This document shows positions 12,559 through 29,328 of a DNA stretch of 64,000 nucleotides, piece by piece (position 1 is the first letter of the stretch; the number at the start of each line of letters is the position of its first letter). The DNA is from an uncultured Nitrospiraceae bacterium (GTDB lineage: Bacteria > Nitrospirota > Nitrospiria > Nitrospirales > Nitrospiraceae), in assembly GCA_963730935.1 (NCBI GenBank), contig CAVSTP010000004.1:512001-576000 (forward strand). Direction: 5' to 3'. The translations under genes and the position numbers were made by a program. The notes beneath the pieces are model-generated. The model ran no database searches and was not told where the DNA came from. It was given only the letters and a program-made list of their open reading frames with translations.

Positions 12559-12965
12559 TCGGCACGCGATCCGGCAAAGTACAGCGCCTCCTCTCAACAA
12601 GTGTTGAGCCGGACTATGGAGACGAAGAAGTGCATCTTAGCCCCGAATCGATTATCCGCCCTGACATTCCATTTCCCTATATTGATAAACGTCGCTTAAG
12701 CACGCCTGACGTGCAGACATAGTTAGGAGTCTTCAAGAAAGTCTCAACTGGCTCTCAACCAAGCTCGTAGCTTGTCCTGACAAAGTGGACAGGTAGCCTC
12801 TAAAATCGTTTCACTTCCTCGCTCCGGCACACAAGTCAAATCCCTCAAGATCACAAAGAAATAGCGGCGATGGGAGACTGCCTTGTACGAGCACCGGCAG
12901 GGTGAGCCAGTGCACCGTTAAATAGGATTCGCTATTGGCGGCGTTGCAGGTTCAAACGACGGTTG

Positions 12966-13010
12966 TGGAGCTGGCGAGAGGAATTGAACCTCCAACCTGT
13001 GGTTTACAAA
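12966..13010 (-). repeat. att-type direct repeat: 3' half of tRNA-Thr(TGT), distal copy
   Basis: 45 bp identical to 29254-29298; begins exactly at the anticodon loop. Confidence 0.92.
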
Positions 13011-13228
13011 CTCGCCTCAGATCAATCTGACACAACCCACGACGAGCTAACCAAAGGGAAAACTGAGGATTCGGAAAAACCATCCTCATGATGGATCGGG
13101 ATAGATTGGCCTGTGCTGGTAGCCGCGTGGTAGCAGAACTGTTTTCCGCAATGATACAGTCCCTCGCATGGTGAGGAAATGGAAGGCGTTGACGCATCTC
13201 GTCATCTCGAAACGTCCAGCGCGAAGCG

Positions 13229-17767: not shown

Positions 17768-19927
17768 ATGATAGACCAGCAATCAACACAATGGTATCAG
17801 AGTGCAATCGATCAACTGACGCGAATCGCGGCGGCGATTCATCGGCACCATGACCTCGATTTGAAGACAGTGTCGTCGCTTGCGTCGGATATTGTGGAGT
17901 CGCTTAGCCGGAGTGACCAGCTGGTAGTCGAAGCCCTCGCGGGATCTAGCGGGTCACAATTGATCACGAATCTGATCAATGTCGGAATCTTGGCGACGAA
18001 GGTGGGGATAGGGCTCGGGTATTACCCGATGGAGTTAGAACGGCTGGCCCTGGCTGGGCTGGTGCATGATATCGGCCTCCTTGCCTTCCCGCAATCACTG
18101 GTTACCAAAGCCGGTCGCCTGACACCTGAAGAGCGCATGCTCATCGAGCAACATCCCGAACTGGGCTATCAAGCGGTGCGGAAGCTCGGAACGACGCATG
18201 ACTGGCTGGCGGAGGTAGTCCGCCAGGCTCACGAACGGTGGAATGGGCAAGGCTACCCCAATAAACTCAAGGGTCGCCAGATCAACGAATTCGCTCAAAT
18301 CATCGCTGTCGTGGATGTCTTTGATGCACTGGTCAGTCCCCGTACCTATCGTCGCCGATTCCTTCCTCACGAGGCCGTGCGCGAGCTCGTGGCGGTCGAG
18401 AGAACGGCGTTTCCGCGGAAAGTCATCAAGGCGTTGGTCGAACAGCTCTCGGCCTATCCGATTGGAACCTCGGTCCGGCTGTCGACCGGTGAGCTGGGCA
18501 CAGTGATCCGTGTCAATACTCGCTTTCCACTCCGTCCGATGGTCTTGATCGGTGAATGCCCGACGGATGGCTCCGCAGCACGGCAAGTCGATCTGAGTAC
18601 GTCACCATGGGTGACGATCATTGAGACCGTCGAGCCTCCCGATGTCGCGCGTATATCATTTCCAATACGACCGCTGGCGCTCCCTGTCACGGAACATCCC
18701 TGCCGCTTTCCTGCCGTTCTGTCGCCAAGGAATCGGGCCGCTCTTGATGCAATCGCGAATGTGATTCAAGAGGTGGTGGAGTCAGTCGCGTCTGTCCGTC
18801 AAGGTGTCGACAGCCTTTCCGAAGGGGAGACGAGGTGGCCGCATCGACGCATGGCTGTTCAAGAGTTGATGAATGCCTCGTTTGAAAAAGAAGTCGTGGG
18901 GTTGTTTGCCCTGGAAGCACACGAATGGTTGGCGCAGATTCAGAGGGCGCTGAAGCTGCTGACTGAGGGGGACGATCAAGCCGTTCGACCAAAGCTCTAC
19001 GGTATCATTCTGCAGGGGATCACCAATCTCGCGAAGTCAGCGGCGACCGTTCAGCTATCGGCCATTGAACAGATGGCCATGAACCTCTTGCCGATTCTGC
19101 ATGAGGTCAGACGGCAGGAGCCGCGCCCAGCCGCGGCGGCGCTAAACTGGTTCCATGAAGGCTTAGTAGGCATCAGCACAGCCATTCACCGTCTGACCAA
19201 TGATCACGCGGAACAACCTATCGCGCAATTTCCTGACGGTGGGAACTCACCCATTGAGGCTCCATCCTCCCATTGCTTGTCGAACCGCCAACAGGTGGCC
19301 ACACCGCAGCCAGTCATTCAGTCATCAGAGGCGAGCGAGCCACCGCTTCTGAAAGCCTTACGTGAACTTCAGCAAGCTCGAGCAAGGTCTGTGCAGCCCA
19401 CCAGAGATGTCTTGGAAGCAGTCATCCTTAGGGCTGGACACGAGGCGGGAGATATAGGCGTATCTGTAATGAAACGCATTCTCAATGAGTTACATATACT
19501 TGATGAACAATTTCTTGAAGACGTCAACCGGCGGGTTCCGGTGATCATGCAAGCACTTCACAACTTACGAAGTCAGGAGAAAACCGATTCAGTGACCGCT
19601 TCTCAACTCGATCCAATCGTGTGCGAAATTGATGCACTTTACGATCTGGCGAATCGTGTCCAAGCCTCAATGATGGCCATGTTCCTCCACGGTCTTCGGT
19701 CGTTCCTACTCGATCTAGCGAATCGTGTCCGAGCCTCAATGATGACCATGTTCCTCGACGGTCTTCGGTCGTTCCTACTCGTGAGCGCCTACAGAAAGGA
19801 CTCGACGCTGCCTCAATGGCTTGAGATGGTCGAAGCACGAGTGCAGACCCTCATTCCAATGGCCGAACAGTGGGTCAATATTGGCCGGACCGAACGGGCA
19901 GACATCAGTGAAATTCTACGAGCCTAG
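17768..19927 (+). CDS. HD-GYP domain protein (putative c-di-GMP phosphodiesterase) with helical Hpt-like C-terminal region
   Basis: 'LVHDIG', 'HPELG', 'HERWNGQGYP', 'DVFDAL..PRTYR'. Confidence 0.85.
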   Translation: MIDQQSTQWYQSAIDQLTRIAAAIHRHHDLDLKTVSSLASDIVESLSRSDQLVVEALAGSSGSQLITNLINVGILATKVGIGLGYYPMELERLALAGLVHDIGLLAFPQSLVTKAGRLTPEERMLIEQHPELGYQAVRKLGTTHDWLAEVVRQAHERWNGQGYPNKLKGRQINEFAQIIAVVDVFDALVSPRTYRRRFLPHEAVRELVAVERTAFPRKVIKALVEQLSAYPIGTSVRLSTGELGTVIRVNTRFPLRPMVLIGECPTDGSAARQVDLSTSPWVTIIETVEPPDVARISFPIRPLALPVTEHPCRFPAVLSPRNRAALDAIANVIQEVVESVASVRQGVDSLSEGETRWPHRRMAVQELMNASFEKEVVGLFALEAHEWLAQIQRALKLLTEGDDQAVRPKLYGIILQGITNLAKSAATVQLSAIEQMAMNLLPILHEVRRQEPRPAAAALNWFHEGLVGISTAIHRLTNDHAEQPIAQFPDGGNSPIEAPSSHCLSNRQQVATPQPVIQSSEASEPPLLKALRELQQARARSVQPTRDVLEAVILRAGHEAGDIGVSVMKRILNELHILDEQFLEDVNRRVPVIMQALHNLRSQEKTDSVTASQLDPIVCEIDALYDLANRVQASMMAMFLHGLRSFLLDLANRVRASMMTMFLDGLRSFLLVSAYRKDSTLPQWLEMVEARVQTLIPMAEQWVNIGRTERADISEILRA
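19643..19780 (+). repeat. in-frame 69-bp tandem duplication inside the HD-GYP gene
   Basis: units 19643-19711 and 19712-19780 differ at 4 positions. Confidence 0.92.
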
Positions 19928-20132
19928 CCCGACGGACGATCCTTTCCTCCTTCCAACCCATCACCTCGGTTGCCATGGTACTAAGCAACCTGGTTCATTA
20001 GTTCGATGCCCCTCAGAACTTGTGGGGTGGCTGCCGATTGGGAACCAAGGCGCTGCAGATCGTCTGGACGGCTCAAGCACTGGATGTGGTAACAGAACGG
20101 TAGCAAACCCTGGAGCGGAATCGTCTAGGTTG

Positions 20133-20178
20133 TGGAGCTGGCGAGAGGAATTGAACCTCCAACCTGTGGTTTACAAAA
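20133..20178 (-). repeat. att-type direct repeat: 3' half of tRNA-Thr(TGT), internal copy
   Basis: 46 bp identical to 29254-29299. Confidence 0.92.
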
Positions 20179-20408
20179 ACCAATCGATTCAAATCTCCCT
20201 GAGTGGAAGGGGATTGATGAACAAGGCAAACGCCATGATCAAAACGATGAATAGTGCATTGGCTTGTGACATTGAATTGCGCCCAGTGTGAACCTGTAAG
20301 TAGGCGACGGTTACATTTACGGTTACACTTTACTCAACTTGCGAGGCGCCCGGGCCCCAAGGCCAGAGCGCCGAGCACGCAGATGTGCATGGTACCTTGC
20401 CGAGAGAC

Positions 20409-20468
20409 CCACCCTTGGGAGGGGTGTCTGCGGTCACGCCGTAGGCCAGTCAGGTAAAGCGGCATACA
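20409..20468. repeat. bipartite repeat, copy 1
   Basis: CCACCCTTGGGA-GGGGTGTC N18 CAGTCAGGTAAAG N4 ATACA (one A missing in box A). Confidence 0.9.
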
Positions 20469-20659
20469 TGGTCAGCTCGAAAGCCGCGTCGGCTCACCCC
20501 GGCGCCGGTGGATGGGTGCTCTGGCCTGGCCGCTCGTTCGCTAGTGTTAGGAAGGCCGCGCATCAAAAATACCGCCGGTCAACAAAACTGTCGCTATTGA
20601 CATGGCAATCATTGCATGGCGCCCTCCTCAGGCTGAGGTAGCTTTTCAGGGAGCTTTCT

Positions 20660-21115
20660 TTAGCGCTCCCTCGGAGGTCCAACTTTCATCGGCGCCACTG
20701 TCCATCCACATTGGCCACTGCACGGACCGTTCGCGCTTTTGGCACAGACGGCAACATCCGTGGGACCAGATGGGGTCATAAATCCAGTATTAGAGATACT
20801 TGGAACACAATTACCCGTCCCCTGGACGCACCCGCAACTGAGAAGCAATGAATCCCCGCCTCCCGCTTTCTGCCTTGCCATCATTTGATTGTTCGCTCCC
20901 TTTTCTAACACAAAACCCGGTGCGGCCCTGAGTTGATTGTCCTGCACGATGACCCCTTGGAGAGGGTCGCCTCGTTCCTGCACGTCACCGGTTGCTGGAG
21001 GTTGTTCTGTTGGAGAAGGCTTGTCTGCGGCATGAGTGAACGAGAGCCCGCCGGTGGCAAGCACCAGAGTGAAGAAACTCGATCGAAGCAATCGCGCTAG
21101 GGACAACAGATTCAT
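20660..21115 (-). CDS. secreted Cys-rich hypothetical protein
   Basis: AAAGGAG RBS, signal peptide ending 'THA', 'GDVQER' motif, 6 C-terminal Cys. Confidence 0.75.
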   Translation of the reverse strand: MNLLSLARLLRSSFFTLVLATGGLSFTHAADKPSPTEQPPATGDVQERGDPLQGVIVQDNQLRAAPGFVLEKGANNQMMARQKAGGGDSLLLSCGCVQGTGNCVPSISNTGFMTPSGPTDVAVCAKSANGPCSGQCGWTVAPMKVGPPRER

Positions 21116-21249
21116 TGGTAACTCCTTTCGGTTTCCTTGAGCACGGTTGTTCTGCATGGCGACAACAACCTATTAGGATAGCCAGTGCGTTGCTCACCGA
21201 CCTGGGACAAATCACATTTGTCCAAAGGTTCTATGGGGTGAGTCGCAGG

Positions 21250-21278
21250 ATTGTCTGGCACGTTCAATAAAAGTGCAA
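21250..21278 (-). promoter_or_regulatory. sigma70-type promoter TTGCAC-N17-GACAAT (second copy)
   Basis: paralogous to 14955-14983. Confidence 0.65.
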
Positions 21279-21391
21279 GGGCGAAAACGTGGTGAGAGAA
21301 AATATTCGATGGCCCGACAAGGGGCGAATTGCAGATTCACAAACTCTGGGCATGTCTATTCGAGATGGCAGCTGATGACAGCTACCCGAGG

Positions 21392-21452
21392 CCACCCTTG
21401 GGAAGGGGTGTCAGTCTGCATGACGGCTGCCAATCAGGTGAAGGCTGATACA
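21392..21452. repeat. bipartite repeat, copy 2
   Basis: CCACCCTTGGGAAGGGGTGTC N18 CAATCAGGTGAAG N4 ATACA. Confidence 0.92.
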
Positions 21453-21478
21453 GGGCGAGGTGAAATGGGGAGCGAATT

Positions 21479-21907
21479 TTAGTTGCGAGGTTCTTCCATG
21501 CGAGTGCGGGGAACAGCAGCAGGAATTGCCTTGCGAATGACCTTATCCAGTTCATCGCCTGAGGTACGAGATTTCACCAAATACGCGAACGCGCCATTCT
21601 TGAGTGCGTGTTGGGGAAAGGTTTCAATATCTACACGGGTCAATATGATTACGGCTACTTCCGGGTGGTGAACACGGCGGACTAAATCTACGAGTACCTG
21701 GAAACCGGACGTGTCAGGCAAGTCCAGCTCTGAGACAACGCAATTGATCTGCATAGATTCGCAAAGGGACAATCCTGCCGCTCCAGTGTCAGCTTCGACG
21801 ATGAGATAATCCGGTGCTGAAGTGGTAAGGCGCTGGACATAGTATTGTCGGGCGTCCTTATAGGCATCGATGAAGAGAACGGTCGCAGAGGGGTAACGGA
21901 TTAGCAT
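21479..21907 (-). CDS. stand-alone receiver-domain protein (Glu at the phospho-Asp position)
   Basis: 'CVVSELDLPDTSGFQVL', 'NGAFAYLVK'; paralog of 26165-26575. Confidence 0.8.
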   Translation of the reverse strand: MLIRYPSATVLFIDAYKDARQYYVQRLTTSAPDYLIVEADTGAAGLSLCESMQINCVVSELDLPDTSGFQVLVDLVRRVHHPEVAVIILTRVDIETFPQHALKNGAFAYLVKSRTSGDELDKVIRKAIPAAVPRTRMEEPRN

Positions 21908-22151
21908 GAAGCGCCTTAGGGGTAAGACTCAACCGATCCTCGAATTCCCTGATAGAACAGCGGAGAGGTCGATTTTAGGAGTGCGTTGTCAGTGAAGCAA
22001 TAGGGCAGAGGGGTAATGAATTACGTGTATTTAATTATTTTGAGCCGATCAGACTGTCTTCCCGAGGCAGCGAACAACGGTCCTCTCACGGCTTCCTGAC
22101 AACCCGCGACGAAAACAGTGTCAATAGGAGCAACGTGCGTCGGATGGTGTG

Positions 22152-22212
22152 CCACCCTTGGGAAGGGGTGTCTACCATGTGGGCGACTGGCAGTCAGATA
22201 AAGACAGATACA
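22152..22212. repeat. bipartite repeat, copy 3
   Basis: CCACCCTTGGGAAGGGGTGTC N18 CAGTCAGATAAAG N4 ATACA. Confidence 0.92.
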
Positions 22213-22592
22213 GGGCCGGAGAAAAACGCCGAAGATGAGTCAGCGGCAGGCAAAGAACCGATTGAAACCGATCGGACACTGTAGTTCTGCCATAGTTTAG
22301 CCACAGTCCCAGCGAGGTGAATTGGCAAAACTCTGGGTCAGGAAACCCGGCGGGGCAACCCGCCGCAAGGATAGAATAGGTGTCTTCTCTGCTGGCTCAC
22401 TCAGACTCGTGCGCGTATTTGTTTCGGTCGCTTTGCTGCCCTCCAATCCAGCAGTCGCTAATGCCAATGGGCTTGAGATCCAGCCACCTGGCTCTGCGGG
22501 CAAGCTATCTCGTCCTGCGACGGTAAAGCTGCTGTAAATGCCGTCGGCCGATGCCGCGCACCGCTGGCTCATCATCGACGCCTCAATGAGCA

Positions 22593-23438
22593 TTATTCCC
22601 CCACTGGAGGTTCCGTTGAAATATCGCTAGCAGTTTGTGTCCTCACATTAAAGTCGACACGCTCACCGGCCTTGAGCGTTCGCGTGATGCTGAGGACGCC
22701 CTGTTGTGTGCCCGGTTGTTGGGTAAACGAATGCTTTGCCTCCTCGCCAAAAATGAGCTGTGCTGAGGCAAAGGCGTGAAAGTTGGCGACTTGCAAAAAC
22801 TCACTTTGCGCAAGGCCGTAGGGAATGCTGATGGTCAACGTGCCTCCTTCGTCGCCTGCTTGAACCCAGCCGCTACGCTCCACCCAAGCGTCGGCGCTAG
22901 TCTTATTTTCTGGCCCTGGCGCTAGCTCAACCGCGACCTGAAAGAGTGAGGGAGAGGACGAGGCGACAGTTGCGCCTGCTCGCACAGTCCGCTCCTCCCA
23001 AAAGCCATCGAAGAACGCATCTTCGACACGTTGACCGTTCGTGATTGTTATGGCCGCTTGTTGCTGTGTTTGAGGCACAAGGGTTACCTGAATGCCTTCG
23101 AGCTTGAGGTTGGCGATATCCAGAAAGGCGCTGCCGTTATACTTGCCCGGTACGGCTGGCGCTGGCGCAGGCCCCGATGTTATTGGCTTCGCAGGCGTAT
23201 TAGATGGACCCGACGGCTTTGGCGCAGGCGTAGGCGTTTGCCCTGAATCAGGCGCTTGTGTAGGGGGAGACGTCGAAGGTGTAGGTGTCGTCGTTGTCTC
23301 ACTCGGCGCTTGTGTCGGCGCTGGAGTGGACTGTGTAGGGGCTGGCGCATTCGTTGTCACGGCTTGCGGCGCGTCACCCCCACCCGAGCAGCCAGCAAAA
23401 AGCAAGACCATTAATGCTATGGGTAAATATGTTTTCAT
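22593..23438 (-). CDS. lipoprotein with Pro/Thr-rich linker
   Basis: GAGGGGAG RBS, lipobox 'FAGC', PT-rich region; may continue into ORF 22297-22593. Confidence 0.8.
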   Translation of the reverse strand: MKTYLPIALMVLLFAGCSGGGDAPQAVTTNAPAPTQSTPAPTQAPSETTTTPTPSTSPPTQAPDSGQTPTPAPKPSGPSNTPAKPITSGPAPAPAVPGKYNGSAFLDIANLKLEGIQVTLVPQTQQQAAITITNGQRVEDAFFDGFWEERTVRAGATVASSSPSLFQVAVELAPGPENKTSADAWVERSGWVQAGDEGGTLTISIPYGLAQSEFLQVANFHAFASAQLIFGEEAKHSFTQQPGTQQGVLSITRTLKAGERVDFNVRTQTASDISTEPPVGE

Positions 23439-23661
23439 GGCTCCCCTCGTGTAAACGCGGGGGCTGTTTTGAGTTCATTGGTAAGGGTGCCGCATCGAGT
23501 GAGGATGCTAGTCCTATCCATAAGAAGCGACAATGAACGGAAGTCACTAGAGAAACTATATGAGGAGGTGTTCCTACATACGGCAACAACAGCTCAGGAA
23601 GTATTTCACCTGGGATGGCGATGGCGACAACTATGAGCAATTGCGTGGCTCACCGTAGGGG

Positions 23662-23722
23662 CCACCCTTGGGAAGGGGTGTCGGCTGCGAGGACGTTGGC
23701 CAGTCAGGTAAAGCTTAATACA
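23662..23722. repeat. bipartite repeat, copy 4
   Basis: CCACCCTTGGGAAGGGGTGTC N18 CAGTCAGGTAAAG N4 ATACA. Confidence 0.92.
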
Positions 23723-23755
23723 TTAGCTGAGGGAAGAAGGTTCAAAACGAGCCGA

Positions 23756-24403
23756 CCCGCCACGCGCTGCGAAATGGTTCAAGACGCTTCTGACCCGGGA
23801 AATGTTAACGAGTCTTGCACCAGTACAGACACTGAGCAGTGGTGGTGCCGGGCGCATTCATGCAATTCTGAATACACATTTGATCAGGCCCTTTCCCAGA
23901 TACTCTGGGCGGACCCTGAGAGGATCGGGTTTGCACGTCAAGATCGTCAGGCTTTGGAAGCAGCGCTCCTATCTTCAATGACTGAAGTTCATCAGTACTC
24001 TCGATCTTGATCTGATCGCTTTGGCCTGTCTGATTGTTGCGGATCGTCACCAACCCTTTGTCTTTATCCACGTTTATGATGGTGGCAGTGTCGGCAGCCC
24101 ATGTGTGGTGGGTGATGAAGAGAGAGAAGAGAACTATAGCCGTCACTCGATAAGACATTGAGGACGACAAGCGTAAATACCTTGGCATGGATCTCTCTCC
24201 TTTTTGACCTAAGGCGAATCGGCAGGAGACTAGAAGCTTCACCTAAGAAAGTAAAGCCCTGCAGTGCCGGGAACGATCGAAAAATCAAGACGGTCACGTT
24301 TTCACATGGGCGGGGTCTATCGCGGTGTGAGGTGCGATGAGCGGTGATGGAGAGGCGGCGAGGCGAACCACGAGTCATCCCGCCACGCGCTGCGAAATGG
24401 TTC
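23756..24403 (+). repeat. 25-bp perfect direct repeat flanking one gene
   Basis: CCCGCCACGCGCTGCGAAATGGTTC at 23756-23780 and 24379-24403. Confidence 0.9.
23805..24188 (-). CDS. secreted hypothetical protein with a C-terminal 4-Cys motif
   Basis: AAAGGAG RBS, signal peptide ending 'TWA', 'CIQNC..QCLYWC'. Confidence 0.7.
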   Translation of the reverse strand: MPRYLRLSSSMSYRVTAIVLFSLFITHHTWAADTATIINVDKDKGLVTIRNNQTGQSDQIKIESTDELQSLKIGALLPKPDDLDVQTRSSQGPPRVSGKGPDQMCIQNCMNAPGTTTAQCLYWCKTR

Positions 24404-24438
24404 CTGAAAGATAATGCCGAGACTCACGGAAGGAGGGG

Positions 24439-24499
24439 CCACCCTTGGGAAGGGGTGTCGTACGCGTGACGGCCTGCCAGCCAGGTGAGGCCGAATCCA
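24439..24499. repeat. bipartite repeat, copy 5
   Basis: CCACCCTTGGGAAGGGGTGTC N18 CAGCCAGGTGAGG N4 ATCCA. Confidence 0.9.
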
Positions 24500-24694: not shown

Positions 24695-24871
24695 GTGTTT
24701 ACTCTCCGACCAGAATTAATCACCTTCACTCGTGCGTGTGAAAACCTACTATCGGATGGAGTGCCGCTGACTGAGGATGAGCGCAACCTGCTCGAATACT
24801 ACGTCAACGATGTGGTGCGCGAATTCCTCGCAGACAAGTCCGTTGTCAGCAACCCTCCGACTGGAGCCTAG
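24695..24871 (+). CDS. small hypothetical protein
   Basis: 58 aa helical-looking ORF after a purine-rich RBS. Confidence 0.45.
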   Translation: MFTLRPELITFTRACENLLSDGVPLTEDERNLLEYYVNDVVREFLADKSVVSNPPTGA

Positions 24872-25103
24872 GAGAAGTTATTTGCGTGGAGTTTTGTCCT
24901 TCGCCAGCCATGGAATCCATGACGTGTCGGGCGAGAATTCCTTATTTTGGCGAGTGATTTGAGGCCGGTATGGGTTAGTTTTCCATCCTCTCCCTCTTGA
25001 TGCCACCGCTCTTTGTATCGCGTTCTTCTTATCCACGGAAGCCCCCGCTTTTTCGCGGTCAGTTAGAAGAGCCGAAGTTAGAGAATTCGCTGTTCTCAGT
25101 TCC

Positions 25104-25271
25104 CTATGCGGCCTTGTACTTTGCTGGTCGCCACTCCTGCTGAGAGGAGAGGTAGACACCGCACACCGTACAAACTACCTCTGCGGTGAACAAGCCGCCT
25201 TTACGTTCTAACTCAAAAATGCAGACGTGTTCACTATACTGAGGTTGATTACTCCGAGGATTGTTCAACAT
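25104..25271 (-). CDS. small hypothetical protein with Cys motif
   Basis: ATG directly downstream of the conserved leader hairpin; 'HVC..CTVCG'. Confidence 0.45.
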   Translation of the reverse strand: MLNNPRSNQPQYSEHVCIFELERKGGLFTAEVVCTVCGVYLSSQQEWRPAKYKAA

Positions 25272-25276
25272 AGGGC

Positions 25277-25336
25277 GACCGCCTTTCTTGTTCACAAAGA
25301 CGGCGGTCGGGACTTCCAAGAGGCCGTCGGCAGTTG
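25277..25336 (-). promoter_or_regulatory. conserved 5' leader with RBS-covering hairpin, copy 1
   Basis: GACCGCC..GGCGGTC stem plus TTCCAAGAGGCCGTCGGCAGTTG, shared with 25833-25888. Confidence 0.6.
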
Positions 25337-25378
25337 TGTAGGTAGGTTGTCAGAGCCTAGGCTCTTTAGAATGCTGAG

Positions 25379-25828
25379 TCATGTTGCTTCAGTCATGGAA
25401 CCAAGACCAGCGCTGATTTCTGGCCGGTCTATGGCCTTCCCATCGATGCCTGCCACCGCTCTTTGTATCGCGCCGTACAATTCCACCCCCACATTCTCTT
25501 TCGATACGACGTCTGAAGCTCCTGCTTTTTGCATCAACCTGTAATCCTTCAGCTCGACCGAGAATCCAACCACGGCTATTTGCGGATACTGTGCCTTGAT
25601 GAAGCGGGTCGCTGCGATTCCGTCCATTCTGGACATGTTGATACCCATCACGACGACTGTCGGCTGAACCTTTGCTATACACACAAGAACCTCCGAACCA
25701 TCACTCGCTTCACCAACCACTTCGATACTGGGATACACTTCCAAGGTACAGCGCAGCCCTTGCCGTACCATGGCGTGGTCATCTACCACTAGGACACGAA
25801 TCGATCTGGTTTGGGATGGGTAAGACAA
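25379..25828 (-). CDS. stand-alone NarL-like receiver protein (Gly at the phospho-Asp position)
   Basis: 'IRVLVVDDHAMVRQGL', 'VVVMGINMSRMDGIAATR'. Confidence 0.8.
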   Translation of the reverse strand: MSYPSQTRSIRVLVVDDHAMVRQGLRCTLEVYPSIEVVGEASDGSEVLVCIAKVQPTVVVMGINMSRMDGIAATRFIKAQYPQIAVVGFSVELKDYRLMQKAGASDVVSKENVGVELYGAIQRAVAGIDGKAIDRPEISAGLGSMTEAT

Positions 25829-25832
25829 TGAC

Positions 25833-25888
25833 GACCGCCTTTCACAGTATGTCGGCGGTCGGACCTTCCAAGAGGCCGTCGGCAGTTG
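25833..25888 (-). promoter_or_regulatory. conserved 5' leader with RBS-covering hairpin, copy 2
   Basis: same stem and 23-nt block as 25277-25336, different loop. Confidence 0.6.
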
Positions 25889-25929
25889 CGTGTGTGGGGA
25901 GAATGTATTAAGAGCGTGCGCCCTTCTTG

Positions 25930-26115
25930 CTAGGATGTCAAGGGGTCATCTTCACCACTCGTGGTGATCTTGGAACTTTGAGACAGGCGCCTCGCTTGCT
26001 CGTGACACTCTTCGCACATATGGTCAACGTCGAAGACGACTGAACGCAGACCGTGGTTGTCCTCTCGTTGACACTTTGAGCAACCGGTGCAGTGGCAGGA
26101 ATCGACGGTTCTCAT
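25930..26115 (-). CDS. small Cys-rich hypothetical protein
   Basis: 'CHCTGCSKC..MCEECH'; coding status unverified. Confidence 0.35.
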   Translation of the reverse strand: MRTVDSCHCTGCSKCQREDNHGLRSVVFDVDHMCEECHEQARRLSQSSKITTSGEDDPLTS

Positions 26116-26164
26116 TACGTGGGGATAGTCATCGACGACGATAGCCTCGTAGTCGCTCCACCAG

Positions 26165-26575
26165 TCAACTAGCAAGTCTATAGCGTCTTTGCACTGTCGA
26201 AATGGCCTTGAGGATGGATGGTGCGAGAAGGTCTCCGCTGCCCACAGTCTTTTGCAATGCGGCTTGTGCGCCGTTCTTGATTGCCAGGTCCAGCAGGAAT
26301 GGATTGGGAAGCCTTGTCAGGATGATCACGGCGATCTCGGGATGATAGAAACGGGGAACGAGCTTTGCCAATACCTCAAACCCGGACATGTCCGGCAGGT
26401 CCAGCTCAAGTACCACACAATCAATCGGTTGTCTTGCGCAGATGTCTAGCCCAGATCGGCCAGTTGCCGCTGTGATCACATCATAGTTTGTTGACGATAC
26501 ACGGAGGCGGTATGCGTAGTATTCACGATATTGGATATCTGGGTCGACGAGGAGAATGGTAGTGGCGTCAGACAT
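26165..26575 (-). CDS. stand-alone receiver-domain protein (Glu at the phospho-Asp position)
   Basis: 'IDCVVLELDLPDMSGFEVL', 'NGAQAALQK'. Confidence 0.8.
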   Translation of the reverse strand: MSDATTILLVDPDIQYREYYAYRLRVSSTNYDVITAATGRSGLDICARQPIDCVVLELDLPDMSGFEVLAKLVPRFYHPEIAVIILTRLPNPFLLDLAIKNGAQAALQKTVGSGDLLAPSILKAISTVQRRYRLAS

Positions 26576-26737
26576 GACAACCACACTGTTCCGGCAAGTG
26601 GCGTGGATCGTGGCTTTGCCGGGACCCTTAGGTGAAGCGTATTTAGATTATGCCCCTAAGAAGCAGGTGTCAATTAGCAGAGAAGTGGCGCCAGGAGCCA
26701 TTTTGCGGCGTATCAAAGTGGTTGATACAATATTTTC

Positions 26738-27325
26738 ATGGTCATTCCACAGCCGATGTCATTGGTTCAACAGCCTGAGCCCTTCGATGACTGGGACTGG
26801 ATCTATGAAATTAAGGACGATGGCTTTCGCGCATTAGCAGTCATTGAGCAGGGACAGTGCCGATTCTTTTCCAGGAAAAAACATAAGCAAACCGGCCATC
26901 AAGACCTTCGAGCGGCATTGGTGAAAGAGGTGAATGCGGAGACGGCCATCCTGGATGGCGAGCTCTTGGTCACCGACCACATGGGAAGGACAATCTTCGC
27001 TGACATGATGCAACGGCGCCATCCCGCCCGATACTTCGCGTTCGATCTACTCTCGCTCAATGGGGAGGACTTGACGAAACTGCCATTGCTGGCACGAAAG
27101 GAAAATTGAAACGGATCCTGCCGTCGCGGTCAGCCCACGTCCTCTATGTCGACCATTCGCGCGGAAATGGGACCGCGCTTTACCGTTTAGCCTGTCAGTT
27201 GGACCTCGAAGGTATGAGGACAATATAAACGTGCGGCATTGAATCAAAATTAAGAATACGGCTTACAGTCAAAAGGAAGGACGGGGAGACTTGTTCAAAC
27301 GAGCACGTCAGATTGCGGGTAGACG
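26738..27325 (+). pseudogene. ATP-dependent DNA ligase (LigC/LigD ligase-domain type) pseudogene
   Basis: 'YEIKDDGFRA', 'ILDGE', 'FAFDLL'; frameshift near 27103; continues 'LKRIL..QLDLEG'; apparent deletion, then TGA before 'IKIKN'; end approximate. Confidence 0.8.
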
Positions 27326-27362
27326 ATACAGTCAGGGTTGGACAGGATTGGGGTCGTAGCCC

Positions 27363-27818
27363 TCAATTAGCTTCTCTAGCCTCTCGTTCGGCTTGCTGGA
27401 GGGCAAGATCTGTCTTCCTCGATGTCGTTGGAGGAGACGAACTGGTCGTCGTTGACGGTGCCACCGTCAATATCACAGGAATGGCTACGCTCCCTTCTTT
27501 ATCGACCGTGACTGTGACCGTGGCCCAATATGTCCCTGGTGCTAACCCTGCTACGCTCACCGCGACACGTGCAGAGTCCTTAATGATCTCTGTCTGAGGA
27601 GTTACCGAGACCCACGTCGCATTATCTGATGCGGTCCAGGTGGTTGGTTTATTATTCGTTTTGGAAACGCTGAGGAACTGGCTAGGTGGATTTATTCCGC
27701 CTTGAACGGCTTGAAAGCTCAGGGATGTGGGCCTCGCCGTTAAGGCACATGCGTTGAGACAAGTTAAGAGACCGATGCCCAGGGTCAACATAATGCCCAC
27801 CACCGAGTGAACGGACAT
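27363..27818 (-). CDS. secreted BACON-domain-like protein, possibly truncated
   Basis: signal peptide; 'PTSLSFQAVQGG.NP', 'WTASDNATWVSVTP', 'GLAPGTY.ATVTV'. Confidence 0.65.
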   Translation of the reverse strand: MSVHSVVGIMLTLGIGLLTCLNACALTARPTSLSFQAVQGGINPPSQFLSVSKTNNKPTTWTASDNATWVSVTPQTEIIKDSARVAVSVAGLAPGTYWATVTVTVDKEGSVAIPVILTVAPSTTTSSSPPTTSRKTDLALQQAEREAREAN

Positions 27819-27992
27819 AGGTCGAGACCTCACCTCTTGATGGCTTGAATCCATACACACATCGCTTCTTACGGTCGACCACGTTGCTGACTTATCGGCA
27901 TCCTAAATATGACTATATGTGCAAAGCCCATTCAAATGCCCCTGGCAGAATTCCTAGAAAGAGGACGCGCCGAAAGAAGGGGATGAGCAGTT

Positions 27993-28031
27993 AAAAAGGC
28001 CCGACTCCGGTGGGCGCGAAGTCGAGCCTTT
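27993..28031 (-). terminator. intrinsic terminator of 28066-28743
   Basis: minus strand AAAGGCTCGACT..AGTCGGGCCTTTTT, stem with U-tract 35 bp after the stop. Confidence 0.6.
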
Positions 28032-28065
28032 GCTATCGGACTCGGAGAATCCCGAGATACATGGA

Positions 28066-28743
28066 TTAGTGGAGAGTGTCGAGGCTTTTTATGTTGTGCG
28101 ACTGGACCTGCGTCGTAAGCTCATCAACGCAGCCGGCAAATTTTTCGATGGCGTCATCCGTCCGATGACGTTTGATGGAGCCGTTCGAAGTCGCGGCGGA
28201 TGTTGTGACGTGTAAATCTAACGCGCTTAGAACATCCATACCGTCCTTAGACCTCTTGAACCCTATGGTGACGGGCTGGCCTTCTGTTAGGTCTTTTAAA
28301 ACAGCCATTGAACCTTCATCGAGCTCGTATACGAAACTTTTTGCCCCGGCCAGGTCCGAGGCGGTACTGTGAAACTTGCTTTTAGCTGTCGTGCCATGAG
28401 GTGTCTCTATATACGCATAGAAGGGCGCCTCTGGCTTTGCTGTCTTATTCTGGGTGTCGATTGTTCCGATCTTTAAGGACAATCCCATTACGTTTTGGTT
28501 CGCGTTTGTGAAGTAGGCGATGTTCCCTACGATTGTGATTAAGGCGCCGTTTCTGTACACAAAATCCTGCTCAGTCAGCGTATACACCAGCGTACATCCA
28601 CCTAGGACCTCTGCCGCTTGCATCGGATAAAATTCAACGGAAATCGTGCCTGTGAATATAGATACATCTCGCGCTGTAGCCTGCTCCGAAAAGGCAGGTA
28701 TGCTATTCAGCATCAAAAGAACTATTAGCAAGGTCTGTTTCAT
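28066..28743 (-). CDS. secreted hypothetical protein
   Basis: 225 aa, signal peptide ending 'PAFS'. Confidence 0.75.
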   Translation of the reverse strand: MKQTLLIVLLMLNSIPAFSEQATARDVSIFTGTISVEFYPMQAAEVLGGCTLVYTLTEQDFVYRNGALITIVGNIAYFTNANQNVMGLSLKIGTIDTQNKTAKPEAPFYAYIETPHGTTAKSKFHSTASDLAGAKSFVYELDEGSMAVLKDLTEGQPVTIGFKRSKDGMDVLSALDLHVTTSAATSNGSIKRHRTDDAIEKFAGCVDELTTQVQSHNIKSLDTLH

Positions 28744-29054
28744 CAGGTTTTCTCTGCTGTGCGCTCCTTCGCCGCCTGTTTACAGATCCGCTCGATGTCC
28801 CGAACCCTCCCCGGATCCGGTGGCGGCCCGCAGTCCACCATACCCTTGAACGGTTCTATCGTCGCATCGGACATGCCGAGCCGACGGTCATAATGGCTGA
28901 TCATGGCGTGGATGCACCAATTGCGCGCATCCTCTAGCGTTTCGAAGATTGGCCCATCGAGCGGCTGGCGCATGCCGAACATGCGCCCTTCGCGGGCGCG
29001 GACGACGGGACGGTAACCAGTGATGAACTTCTGATGTCGGCCTTTGGGCAGCAT
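28743..29054 (-). CDS. hypothetical protein
   Basis: AGGGGG RBS; TGATG coupling to the next gene. Confidence 0.55.
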   Translation of the reverse strand: MLPKGRHQKFITGYRPVVRAREGRMFGMRQPLDGPIFETLEDARNWCIHAMISHYDRRLGMSDATIEPFKGMVDCGPPPDPGRVRDIERICKQAAKERTAEKT

Positions 29055-29253
29055 GACTACCCCCTGGTTTTCCCCTATACAATCACCTAATGGGTCTCTA
29101 GGAGCCCGATCCGCTCTCATCGCAGCCCCCACTGGCCACGCGACTGCTCACGAACAGGTCTTGGAGAATCTTCCGAGGATGGGGCCGAGGCGTCAATGCT
29201 ACCTTTTACGCTACCTTTTAGCTTTTATGGGCCCTCTGAAAGCACATAAGTTG

Positions 29254-29328
29254 TGGAGCTGGCGAGAGGAATTGAACCTCCAACCTGTGGTTTACAAAAC
29301 CACTGCTCTGCCATTGAGCTACGCCAGC
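29254..29328 (-). tRNA. tRNA-Thr (anticodon TGT), CCA encoded
   Basis: GCTGGCG acceptor stem, D arm, GTGGT-TTTGTAA-ACCAC anticodon arm, GGTTCAATTCC T arm. Confidence 0.97.

Follow-up and report, generated by a model that had tools for sequence, protein, structure and literature searches.

Based on the collective evidence obtained here, an element of about 61 bp that occurs five times between positions 20409 and 24499 of the window (the whole 64,000-nucleotide stretch analysed, from the genome of an uncultured Nitrospiraceae bacterium) is probably a mimic of the packaging-initiation (pac) site of tailed phages of ~42-45 kb, and would mark tRNA-associated cargo islands for packaging in trans. 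Sequence comparison shows the element to be a homologue of one conserved non-coding site, which lies beside a terS-like gene in these phages. On the bacterial side it is confined to tRNA islands, where it often stands just inside the distal attachment (att) arm and points into the island. Given that the repeats are homologous to a phage signal located beside packaging genes, the islands probably hitch-hike in the capsids of those phages. An initial annotation of the window had listed a packaging signal left by satellites among its alternatives, and it is this reading that the phage-site homology supports.

Each copy comprises a box A, a spacer and a box B, and all five are found on the forward strand, at 20409-20468 (site 1), 21392-21452 (site 2), 22152-22212 (site 3), 23662-23722 (site 4) and 24439-24499 (site 5), with box B at 20447-20468, 21431-21452, 22191-22212, 23701-23722 and 24478-24499, respectively. 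The five co-oriented copies with a near-invariant box A, as first described, are borne out: box A is exact at 21392, 22152, 23662 and 24439 (0 matches in 100 shuffles), and the terminal copy at 20409 deviates by one missing A, which is why an ungapped box A search misses it. Regarding the spacer, said to consist of exactly 18 variable nucleotides, the five 18-mers of the window stand as quoted, but the length is not fixed at 18 and the sequence is not free; the spacer is 17 nt long in most copies of genus g26 and in the phages L159 and L167, and its per-column identity across 11 copies of this genome is 0.25-0.82. Among the 11 full copies of the genome, identity is 0.83-0.93 in box A, lower in the spacer and 0.65-0.79 in box B, and it equals background (~0.25) upstream of about -10 and again beyond about +80, with the homology beginning about 5-10 bp upstream of box A. 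Half copies, which break between spacer and box B, and indel variants of the element are also present. The possibility of an overlooked reading frame running across the motif was dismissed by eye, since both the 17-nt spacers and stop codons interrupt it.

The phage counterpart emerged from IMG/VR with a relaxed pattern built from the bacterial variants, which returned 4 loci. Two of these (L160, L161) were near-identical matches inside a gene and were dropped as chance. In L159 and L162, the element occupies a non-coding gap after a gene of ~150 aa (gene X) and upstream of the genes for the large terminase (TerL) and a P22-type portal, as annotated with PHROGs. L167, found via TerL similarity alone, has the element at the same place, with the boxes kept and the spacer different. 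A hidden Markov model (HMM) made from the bacterial copies only and applied to 78 loci of TerL relatives scored 3 loci below E=1e-5 and 2 more at about 0.03; the reversed control reached 0.85 at best. Gene X is present in 18 of the 32 closest TerL loci; in 12 of these 18, an 8-mer core occurs at most 400 nt away from it on the same strand, and in 1 on the other strand, compared to 2 matches in 77,992 nt elsewhere, and the core together with ATAC is found in 0 of 47 loci of distant TerL. The parts constant across the phages are this core and an ATAC/ACAC placed 40-50 nt later (11 of 12 sites), and the site stands after gene X, not before it, in 9 loci. In the converse direction, an HMM of the 12 phage sites produced 9 hits in the bacterial genome, all of them known copies and 5 at E<0.01 (reversed best 0.23).

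The element is overall 69-79% identical to its best-matching phage site. The window copies share 45-48 of 60-61 nt with theirs: sites 1 and 2 match L159 (47/60 and 46/61 nt), sites 3 and 5 match L167 (48/61 and 45/61 nt), and site 4 matches L162 (46/61 nt). Boxes are better conserved than spacer and flanks among the bacterial copies, and the same pattern holds between the phages L159 and L167. A single site was found per phage record (3 records scanned), and the island variant of G105 resembles, by eye, the site of another phage, L170. The closest TerL clusters include contigs of 42-45 kb; two phage records contain a major head gene, and no integrase was found in 5 records of 35-88% completeness. 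Named phages offered distant TerL relatives only (5 records, 26%), and blastn comparisons with named phages and plasmids yielded nothing beyond short chance matches. Gene X is a small terminase candidate, TerS-like by its position and its predicted fold of a helical hairpin (pLDDT 69), with a weak Atlas lead to the T5 TerS (0.87 only).

A profile scan of this genome (G000; C2, C3 and C4 denote its contigs, and L- and G-numbers the loci and records of the analysis) detected 17 copies at E<1e-4, in clusters of 1, 1, 4, 1, 2, 5, 1 and 2. Clustering of the copies in tRNA islands, proposed as a check on the initial annotation, is evident: every one of the 8 clusters has a tRNA or tRNA/att fragment at a distance of less than 10 kb (background 0.27; p=2.7e-5), and for 6 of the 8 an intact tRNA is close by (p=7e-4). 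Of the 17 copies, 16 are oriented towards the tRNA, as judged by hand; the direction of the C3 cluster was taken from att fragments because its tRNA sits on another contig. A join between contigs C2 and C3 was looked for and is unsupported. Integrases near the copies are frequently partial, and intact ones occur elsewhere in the genome.

Across the Nitrospira family the element occurs only sporadically: 16 of 371 genomes contain box A when up to 3 mismatches are allowed, and 10 of 371 contain box B. One genome (G007) has box A only, and single three-mismatch box A matches in G101, G085, G006, G240 and G264 were dropped for having no box B. Exact and near-exact patterns returned 0 and 1 locus in the species genomes. 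Copies number 9 in G388 (genus g26; 7% contamination), 2 in G385 and 2 in G383. The genus g26 motif has a 17-nt spacer and is embedded in a longer block ending in A/T tracts. Direct repeats of the arm type are found at most 200 nt upstream in 17 of 20 g26 copies, that is, the copies stand just inside the island att arm, and in 18 of 31 rows overall from outside this genome (background 0.0003 per 200 nt). This placement just inside the arm recurs at many tRNAs and in two genera. Locus L105 is a 2.6-kb island that begins with half a tRNA-Arg and the arm, continues with the site, a single cargo gene and the relic of an integrase, and closes with the complete tRNA; in other islands, the same arm is followed by variants retaining only the CACCCTTG core and box B. 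Pfam scans of 105 of the 141 listed open reading frames (ORFs) downstream of g26 copies, and of 85 of 156 from the islands of this genome, revealed cargo, insertion sequence transposases and integrases, and no relaxase or terminase; terminase (PF03237, PF03354) was likewise not found in 5 motif-bearing genomes. The intact integrase of the site-bearing island in G385 (L113:17669-18847) is 48% identical to the integrases of L163 and L164, two inovirus-like contigs, so that the att arms may come from filamentous prophages.

A number of observations weigh against the packaging interpretation. Four stricter scans of IMG/VR with exact or near-exact patterns found nothing before the fifth succeeded, and the HMM of the phage sites is not fully independent because those sites were located with the core from the bacterial motif. 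The core is not nearby in 6 of the 18 gene-X loci (2 of the 6 have less than 300 nt of upstream sequence). Gene X itself has no match in PHROG, Pfam or PDB, and its fold searches returned generic hairpins. One copy of this genome, C2:631977, and those at L045 and L048 point away from the tRNA; arm repeats are upstream in only 2 of the 17 copies of this genome (site 1 of the window included), and the arm-repeat pattern was written after the copies had been inspected. Searches for the phages' host gave one weak 29% match to TerL in 301 genomes of the phylum, and among 341 genomes of the family nothing spacer-like matched the L159 contig. Moreover, islands that have no Rep or primase offer no evident route to a packageable substrate. 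Concerning the host, a small secreted phage gene (L245:136-200) shares 36-60 nt at 78-89% identity with genes in 8 of the 341 Nitrospira-family genomes, a weak host hint; apart from the site, it is the only DNA found in common between phage and family genomes.

In the packaging that we envisage, the helper terminase would bind the conserved boxes, make its cut in their vicinity and fill the head towards the tRNA. The substrate may be the island in situ, in which case cargo and flanking chromosome would be taken together as in lateral transduction. Alternatively, it may be an excised circle, generated by an integrase encoded elsewhere and acting in trans. The five-copy stack could have grown by repeated capture of units that start at a site and bring the next gene with them; this is the weakest step of the proposal. 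The sharp left edge of homology fits units beginning at a cut end, and the stack may accordingly have been built gene by gene. The spacing of one gene would in that case follow incidentally from accretion, without a dedicated cassette recombinase. Extended to the whole genome, the scenario is that virulent phages move tRNA islands devoid of mobility genes via pac mimics at about eight hotspots, that stacks derive from recaptured terminase-cut ends and that the stacked variants match different helper phages; in this full form we put it forward tentatively, as a possibility rather than an expectation. Two ORFs at C3:4018-8837, which we take to resemble nxrA and nxrB of Nitrospira, are located 12-26 kb downstream of four sites pointing at them, within one predicted headful.

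The copies might alternatively be dead relics, phage or satellite ends repeatedly captured at tRNA hotspots and inactive since, with the stack as a scar. The often partial integrases beside the copies, the half copies and indel variants, and the 15 of 17 copies of this genome that have no arm repeats upstream would all suit such a history. Conservation of 0.83-0.93 in the boxes versus about 0.25 outside, a pattern that recurs between the phages L159 and L167, speaks against inactivity, as does the repeated position just inside the arm at many tRNAs in two genera. In addition, no terS, terL or other phage gene was found beside any scanned copy, gene X itself not having been searched in the genome. 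We therefore regard the relic explanation as unlikely.

Another explanation to be weighed is a captured late promoter or regulatory site of the phage, through which the islands would respond to infection and in which packaging has no part. The site is found at the start of the phage late gene block, its two boxes 17-18 nt apart resemble promoter geometry and L159 encodes a sigma factor, which makes a late promoter a real rival. However, all five cargo ORFs of the window run against the site, the distance of 40-50 nt from core to ATAC/ACAC (11 of 12 phage sites) differs from a -35/-10 spacing, and the site is 3' of gene X in 9 loci. The L159 sigma factor, moreover, gave no tblastn match in two site-bearing records (the 40 kb of G637 and the first 20 kb of G635). 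On this balance, the promoter has a small chance of being correct.

Considerably less credit can be given to the element as the end of a Y1/HUH transposon of the TIRtron type, as a conjugative transfer origin (oriT) or as a structured RNA. The final string of box A, GGTGTC(AG), resembles the terminal repeats on either side of Y1 transposase genes of Nitrospira, and this likeness extends to TIRtron/TIRYT ends (PMC3733652, PMC6006769), the TIRtron terminal-repeat consensus being GGGGWSAS (PMC3733652). Unlike such ends, which the R2 repeat family described below does carry, the element was not seen next to Y1 genes, and it possesses a homologue in phages. The one Y1 gene of the genome has other terminal repeats and is more than 70 kb away from the nearest copy, and the flanks of 9 Y1 loci show other repeats (by eye). 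For a transfer origin, a relaxase is missing from the 227 ORFs scanned in and near the islands (37+105+85), a search that was not genome-wide, there is no meaningful plasmid match, and a likeness to a conjugative oriT found no support. For an RNA, a hairpin can be drawn in box A, but none of its 7 pairs exhibits a two-sided change, the tRNA is the only Rfam match, and the spacer has no folding advantage over its shuffles (mean p 0.56, 29 variants).

Very improbable, finally, is the explanation which the initial annotation had preferred, namely that the copies are boundary or recombination sites of integron-like cassettes served by a recombinase or HUH enzyme in trans: the five co-oriented copies with mostly one gene between them, the smaller co-oriented clusters at C3:20.8-30.3 kb and C4:426-428 kb and the break of the half copies between spacer and box B speak for it, but it is left unsupported by a genome without IntI (TIGR02249 best 86.4 bits vs cut-off 265), by 4 of 8 clusters being single copies, by the 5 of 5 checked paralogs of cassette 1-3 cargo lying at least 15 kb from any copy, by the lack of a motif-to-motif joint in 4 metagenome runs (contigs only, from which rare variants drop out) and by the single-copy state of the homologous phage site. 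Integron arrays share with the element the co-oriented repeats with about one gene between; the element differs in that IntI and a long, folded site of the attC type are absent, many of its copies stand alone and its homologue is a phage site. No folded attC-type site with a covarying stem was found, the 7-bp hairpin showing 0 of 7 pairs with a two-sided change. Parts of the cargo occur at about 99% identity in other soil or sediment metagenomes (these 4 runs), and two kinds of joint at the motif in metagenome contigs were rejected as paralogous copies from other loci. The array does not hold up as a unit, considering that the 17 copies are spread over 8 clusters, of which 4 consist of a single copy.

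The island of the window measures 9.1 kb and is integrated between tRNA-Thr 3' repeats at 20126-20178 and 29247-29299. Its integration target is the tRNA-Thr(TGT) at 29254-29328 (reverse strand), towards which all five sites point, and its distal end is the att repeat at 20126-20178 (reverse strand), a copy of the 3' half of that tRNA. The island adjoins a second, tandem one without motif copies, closed by an outer att repeat at 12959-13011 (reverse strand) that also copies the tRNA-Thr 3' half. Site 1 is 231 bp inside the att repeat, in agreement with the ~230 bp first stated. Two GGTTACA direct repeats at 20309-20327 (forward strand) may represent integrase arm-type sites, and repeats of this kind precede the motif in other Nitrospira islands as well. 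No replication, relaxase, terminase or integrase gene was detected in the window's island, nor an AlpA-type regulator or primase, and neither of the two islands gave a tyrosine recombinase match. With int, alpA and primase all absent from it, the island is not a PICI or PICMI.

The cargo is on the reverse strand, as first described, and the receiver domain alone has a Pfam match. The start codons are 235, 245, 224, and 197 or 251 bp from the next copy, consistent with the earlier figures. Cargo 1 (20660-21157) is a Cys-rich, probably secreted protein of 165 aa, with a paralog at C4:411.2-411.6 kb that has no site nearby; cargo 2 (21479-21907) is a stand-alone receiver domain (PF00072). The claim of one gene per interval is not borne out in interval 3, which holds two ORFs: cargo 3a (22593-23438), a Pro/Thr-rich, lipoprotein-like ORF of 281 aa without Pfam match, and cargo 3b (22297-22593), an ORF of 98 aa that is 55-74% identical to stretches of other, long ORFs, matching their ends (two of them here in G000, and the terminal part of a long one in G015). 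In interval 4, cargo 4 (23805-24242), a secreted-type Cys-containing ORF, is bracketed by pieces of a second, unrelated repeat family with ends of the Y1-transposase type (R2), present as a fragment at 23747-23780 and as a near-complete element at 24282-24410 (both forward strand). The remainder of the island (24700-29050) is a mosaic of modules, namely receivers, a DNA-ligase fragment and a BACON-type ORF, with many paralogs of 70-95% identity in other islands of the same genome. Outside the island, a 69-bp tandem duplication lies at 19642-19779, within an HD-domain ORF at 17768-19927.

The R2 family (~140 bp) has 51 matches in the genome, of which 46 form one co-oriented array of 82 kb elsewhere on the contig (C4:798,900-880,900), in which about one gene separates neighbouring copies. 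The R2 ends look like the terminal repeats seen with Y1 (TIRYT-type) transposases of other Nitrospira, and the only Y1 gene of the genome (C4:809,465-810,139) is inside the array. R2 is a better cassette-like candidate than the five-copy element. An assignment of the R2 core to the ~61-bp element was rejected once R2 was shown to be a separate family. Elsewhere in the genome, C2:657,300-662,100 (L265:12299-17093) accommodates a PICI/PICMI-like element at a tRNA-Leu, comprising AlpA, a VapE/DUF5906 protein, two helix-turn-helix genes and an integrase; it holds the genome's one AlpA match and no copy of the site. C2:3267-6012 (L266) combines HTH_17, a Rep_trans initiator and an intact integrase beside a tRNA-Thr(CGT), a rolling-circle module at an island end.

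Mimicry of pac is itself already known. The Vibrio cholerae satellite PLE requires a 14-bp mimic of the pac site of its helper phage (Boyd and Seed 2024, PMC11417361). The analogy with PLE and its phage ICP1 is that the main DNA common to island and phage is a short non-coding stretch with ~70% identity to a lytic phage's intergenic site (71% over 89 bp in PLE, up to 79% over 61 bp in the Nitrospira islands). PLE has one experimentally tested site, an origin and packaging proteins of its own, whereas the Nitrospira element is known from sequence alone, with no mobility gene detected in the window island, as many as five sites in one island and numerous tRNA targets. PICMI, too, are small and integrated, and a virulent helper is presumed to package them passively (Barcia-Cruz et al. 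2024, PMC10803314); they need int, alpA and primase and have, in the part of that paper drawn on here, no pac site identified, while the Nitrospira islands have no alpA or primase and do have an identifiable site. In lateral transduction and cotransduction by pac phages and SaPIs, packaging in situ takes cargo and flanking chromosome, as it would here, and tandem islands are common to SaPI lateral cotransduction and the Nitrospira locus (PMC12829572). The pac site there, however, is part of an inducible prophage or PICI that encodes a terminase of its own, whereas in Nitrospira the site alone would be resident and the helper external. Our literature search, with supplements outside its scope, found no paper on the motif or on pac-bearing Nitrospira islands.

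Should the full scenario of recaptured terminase-cut ends and several helper phages be true, it would represent a terminase-driven analogue of a cassette array and a form of lateral transduction without a prophage. More generally, the five-copy stack would illustrate a way for cassette-like arrays to form in the absence of an integron. For the uncultured phages, the element would provide a candidate packaging site, a sequence-based hint to the host and a prediction of the chromosomal regions to be expected in virions. As a concrete candidate of 61 bp, the element would tie the islands of nitrite-oxidising Nitrospira to a defined family of uncultured phages.

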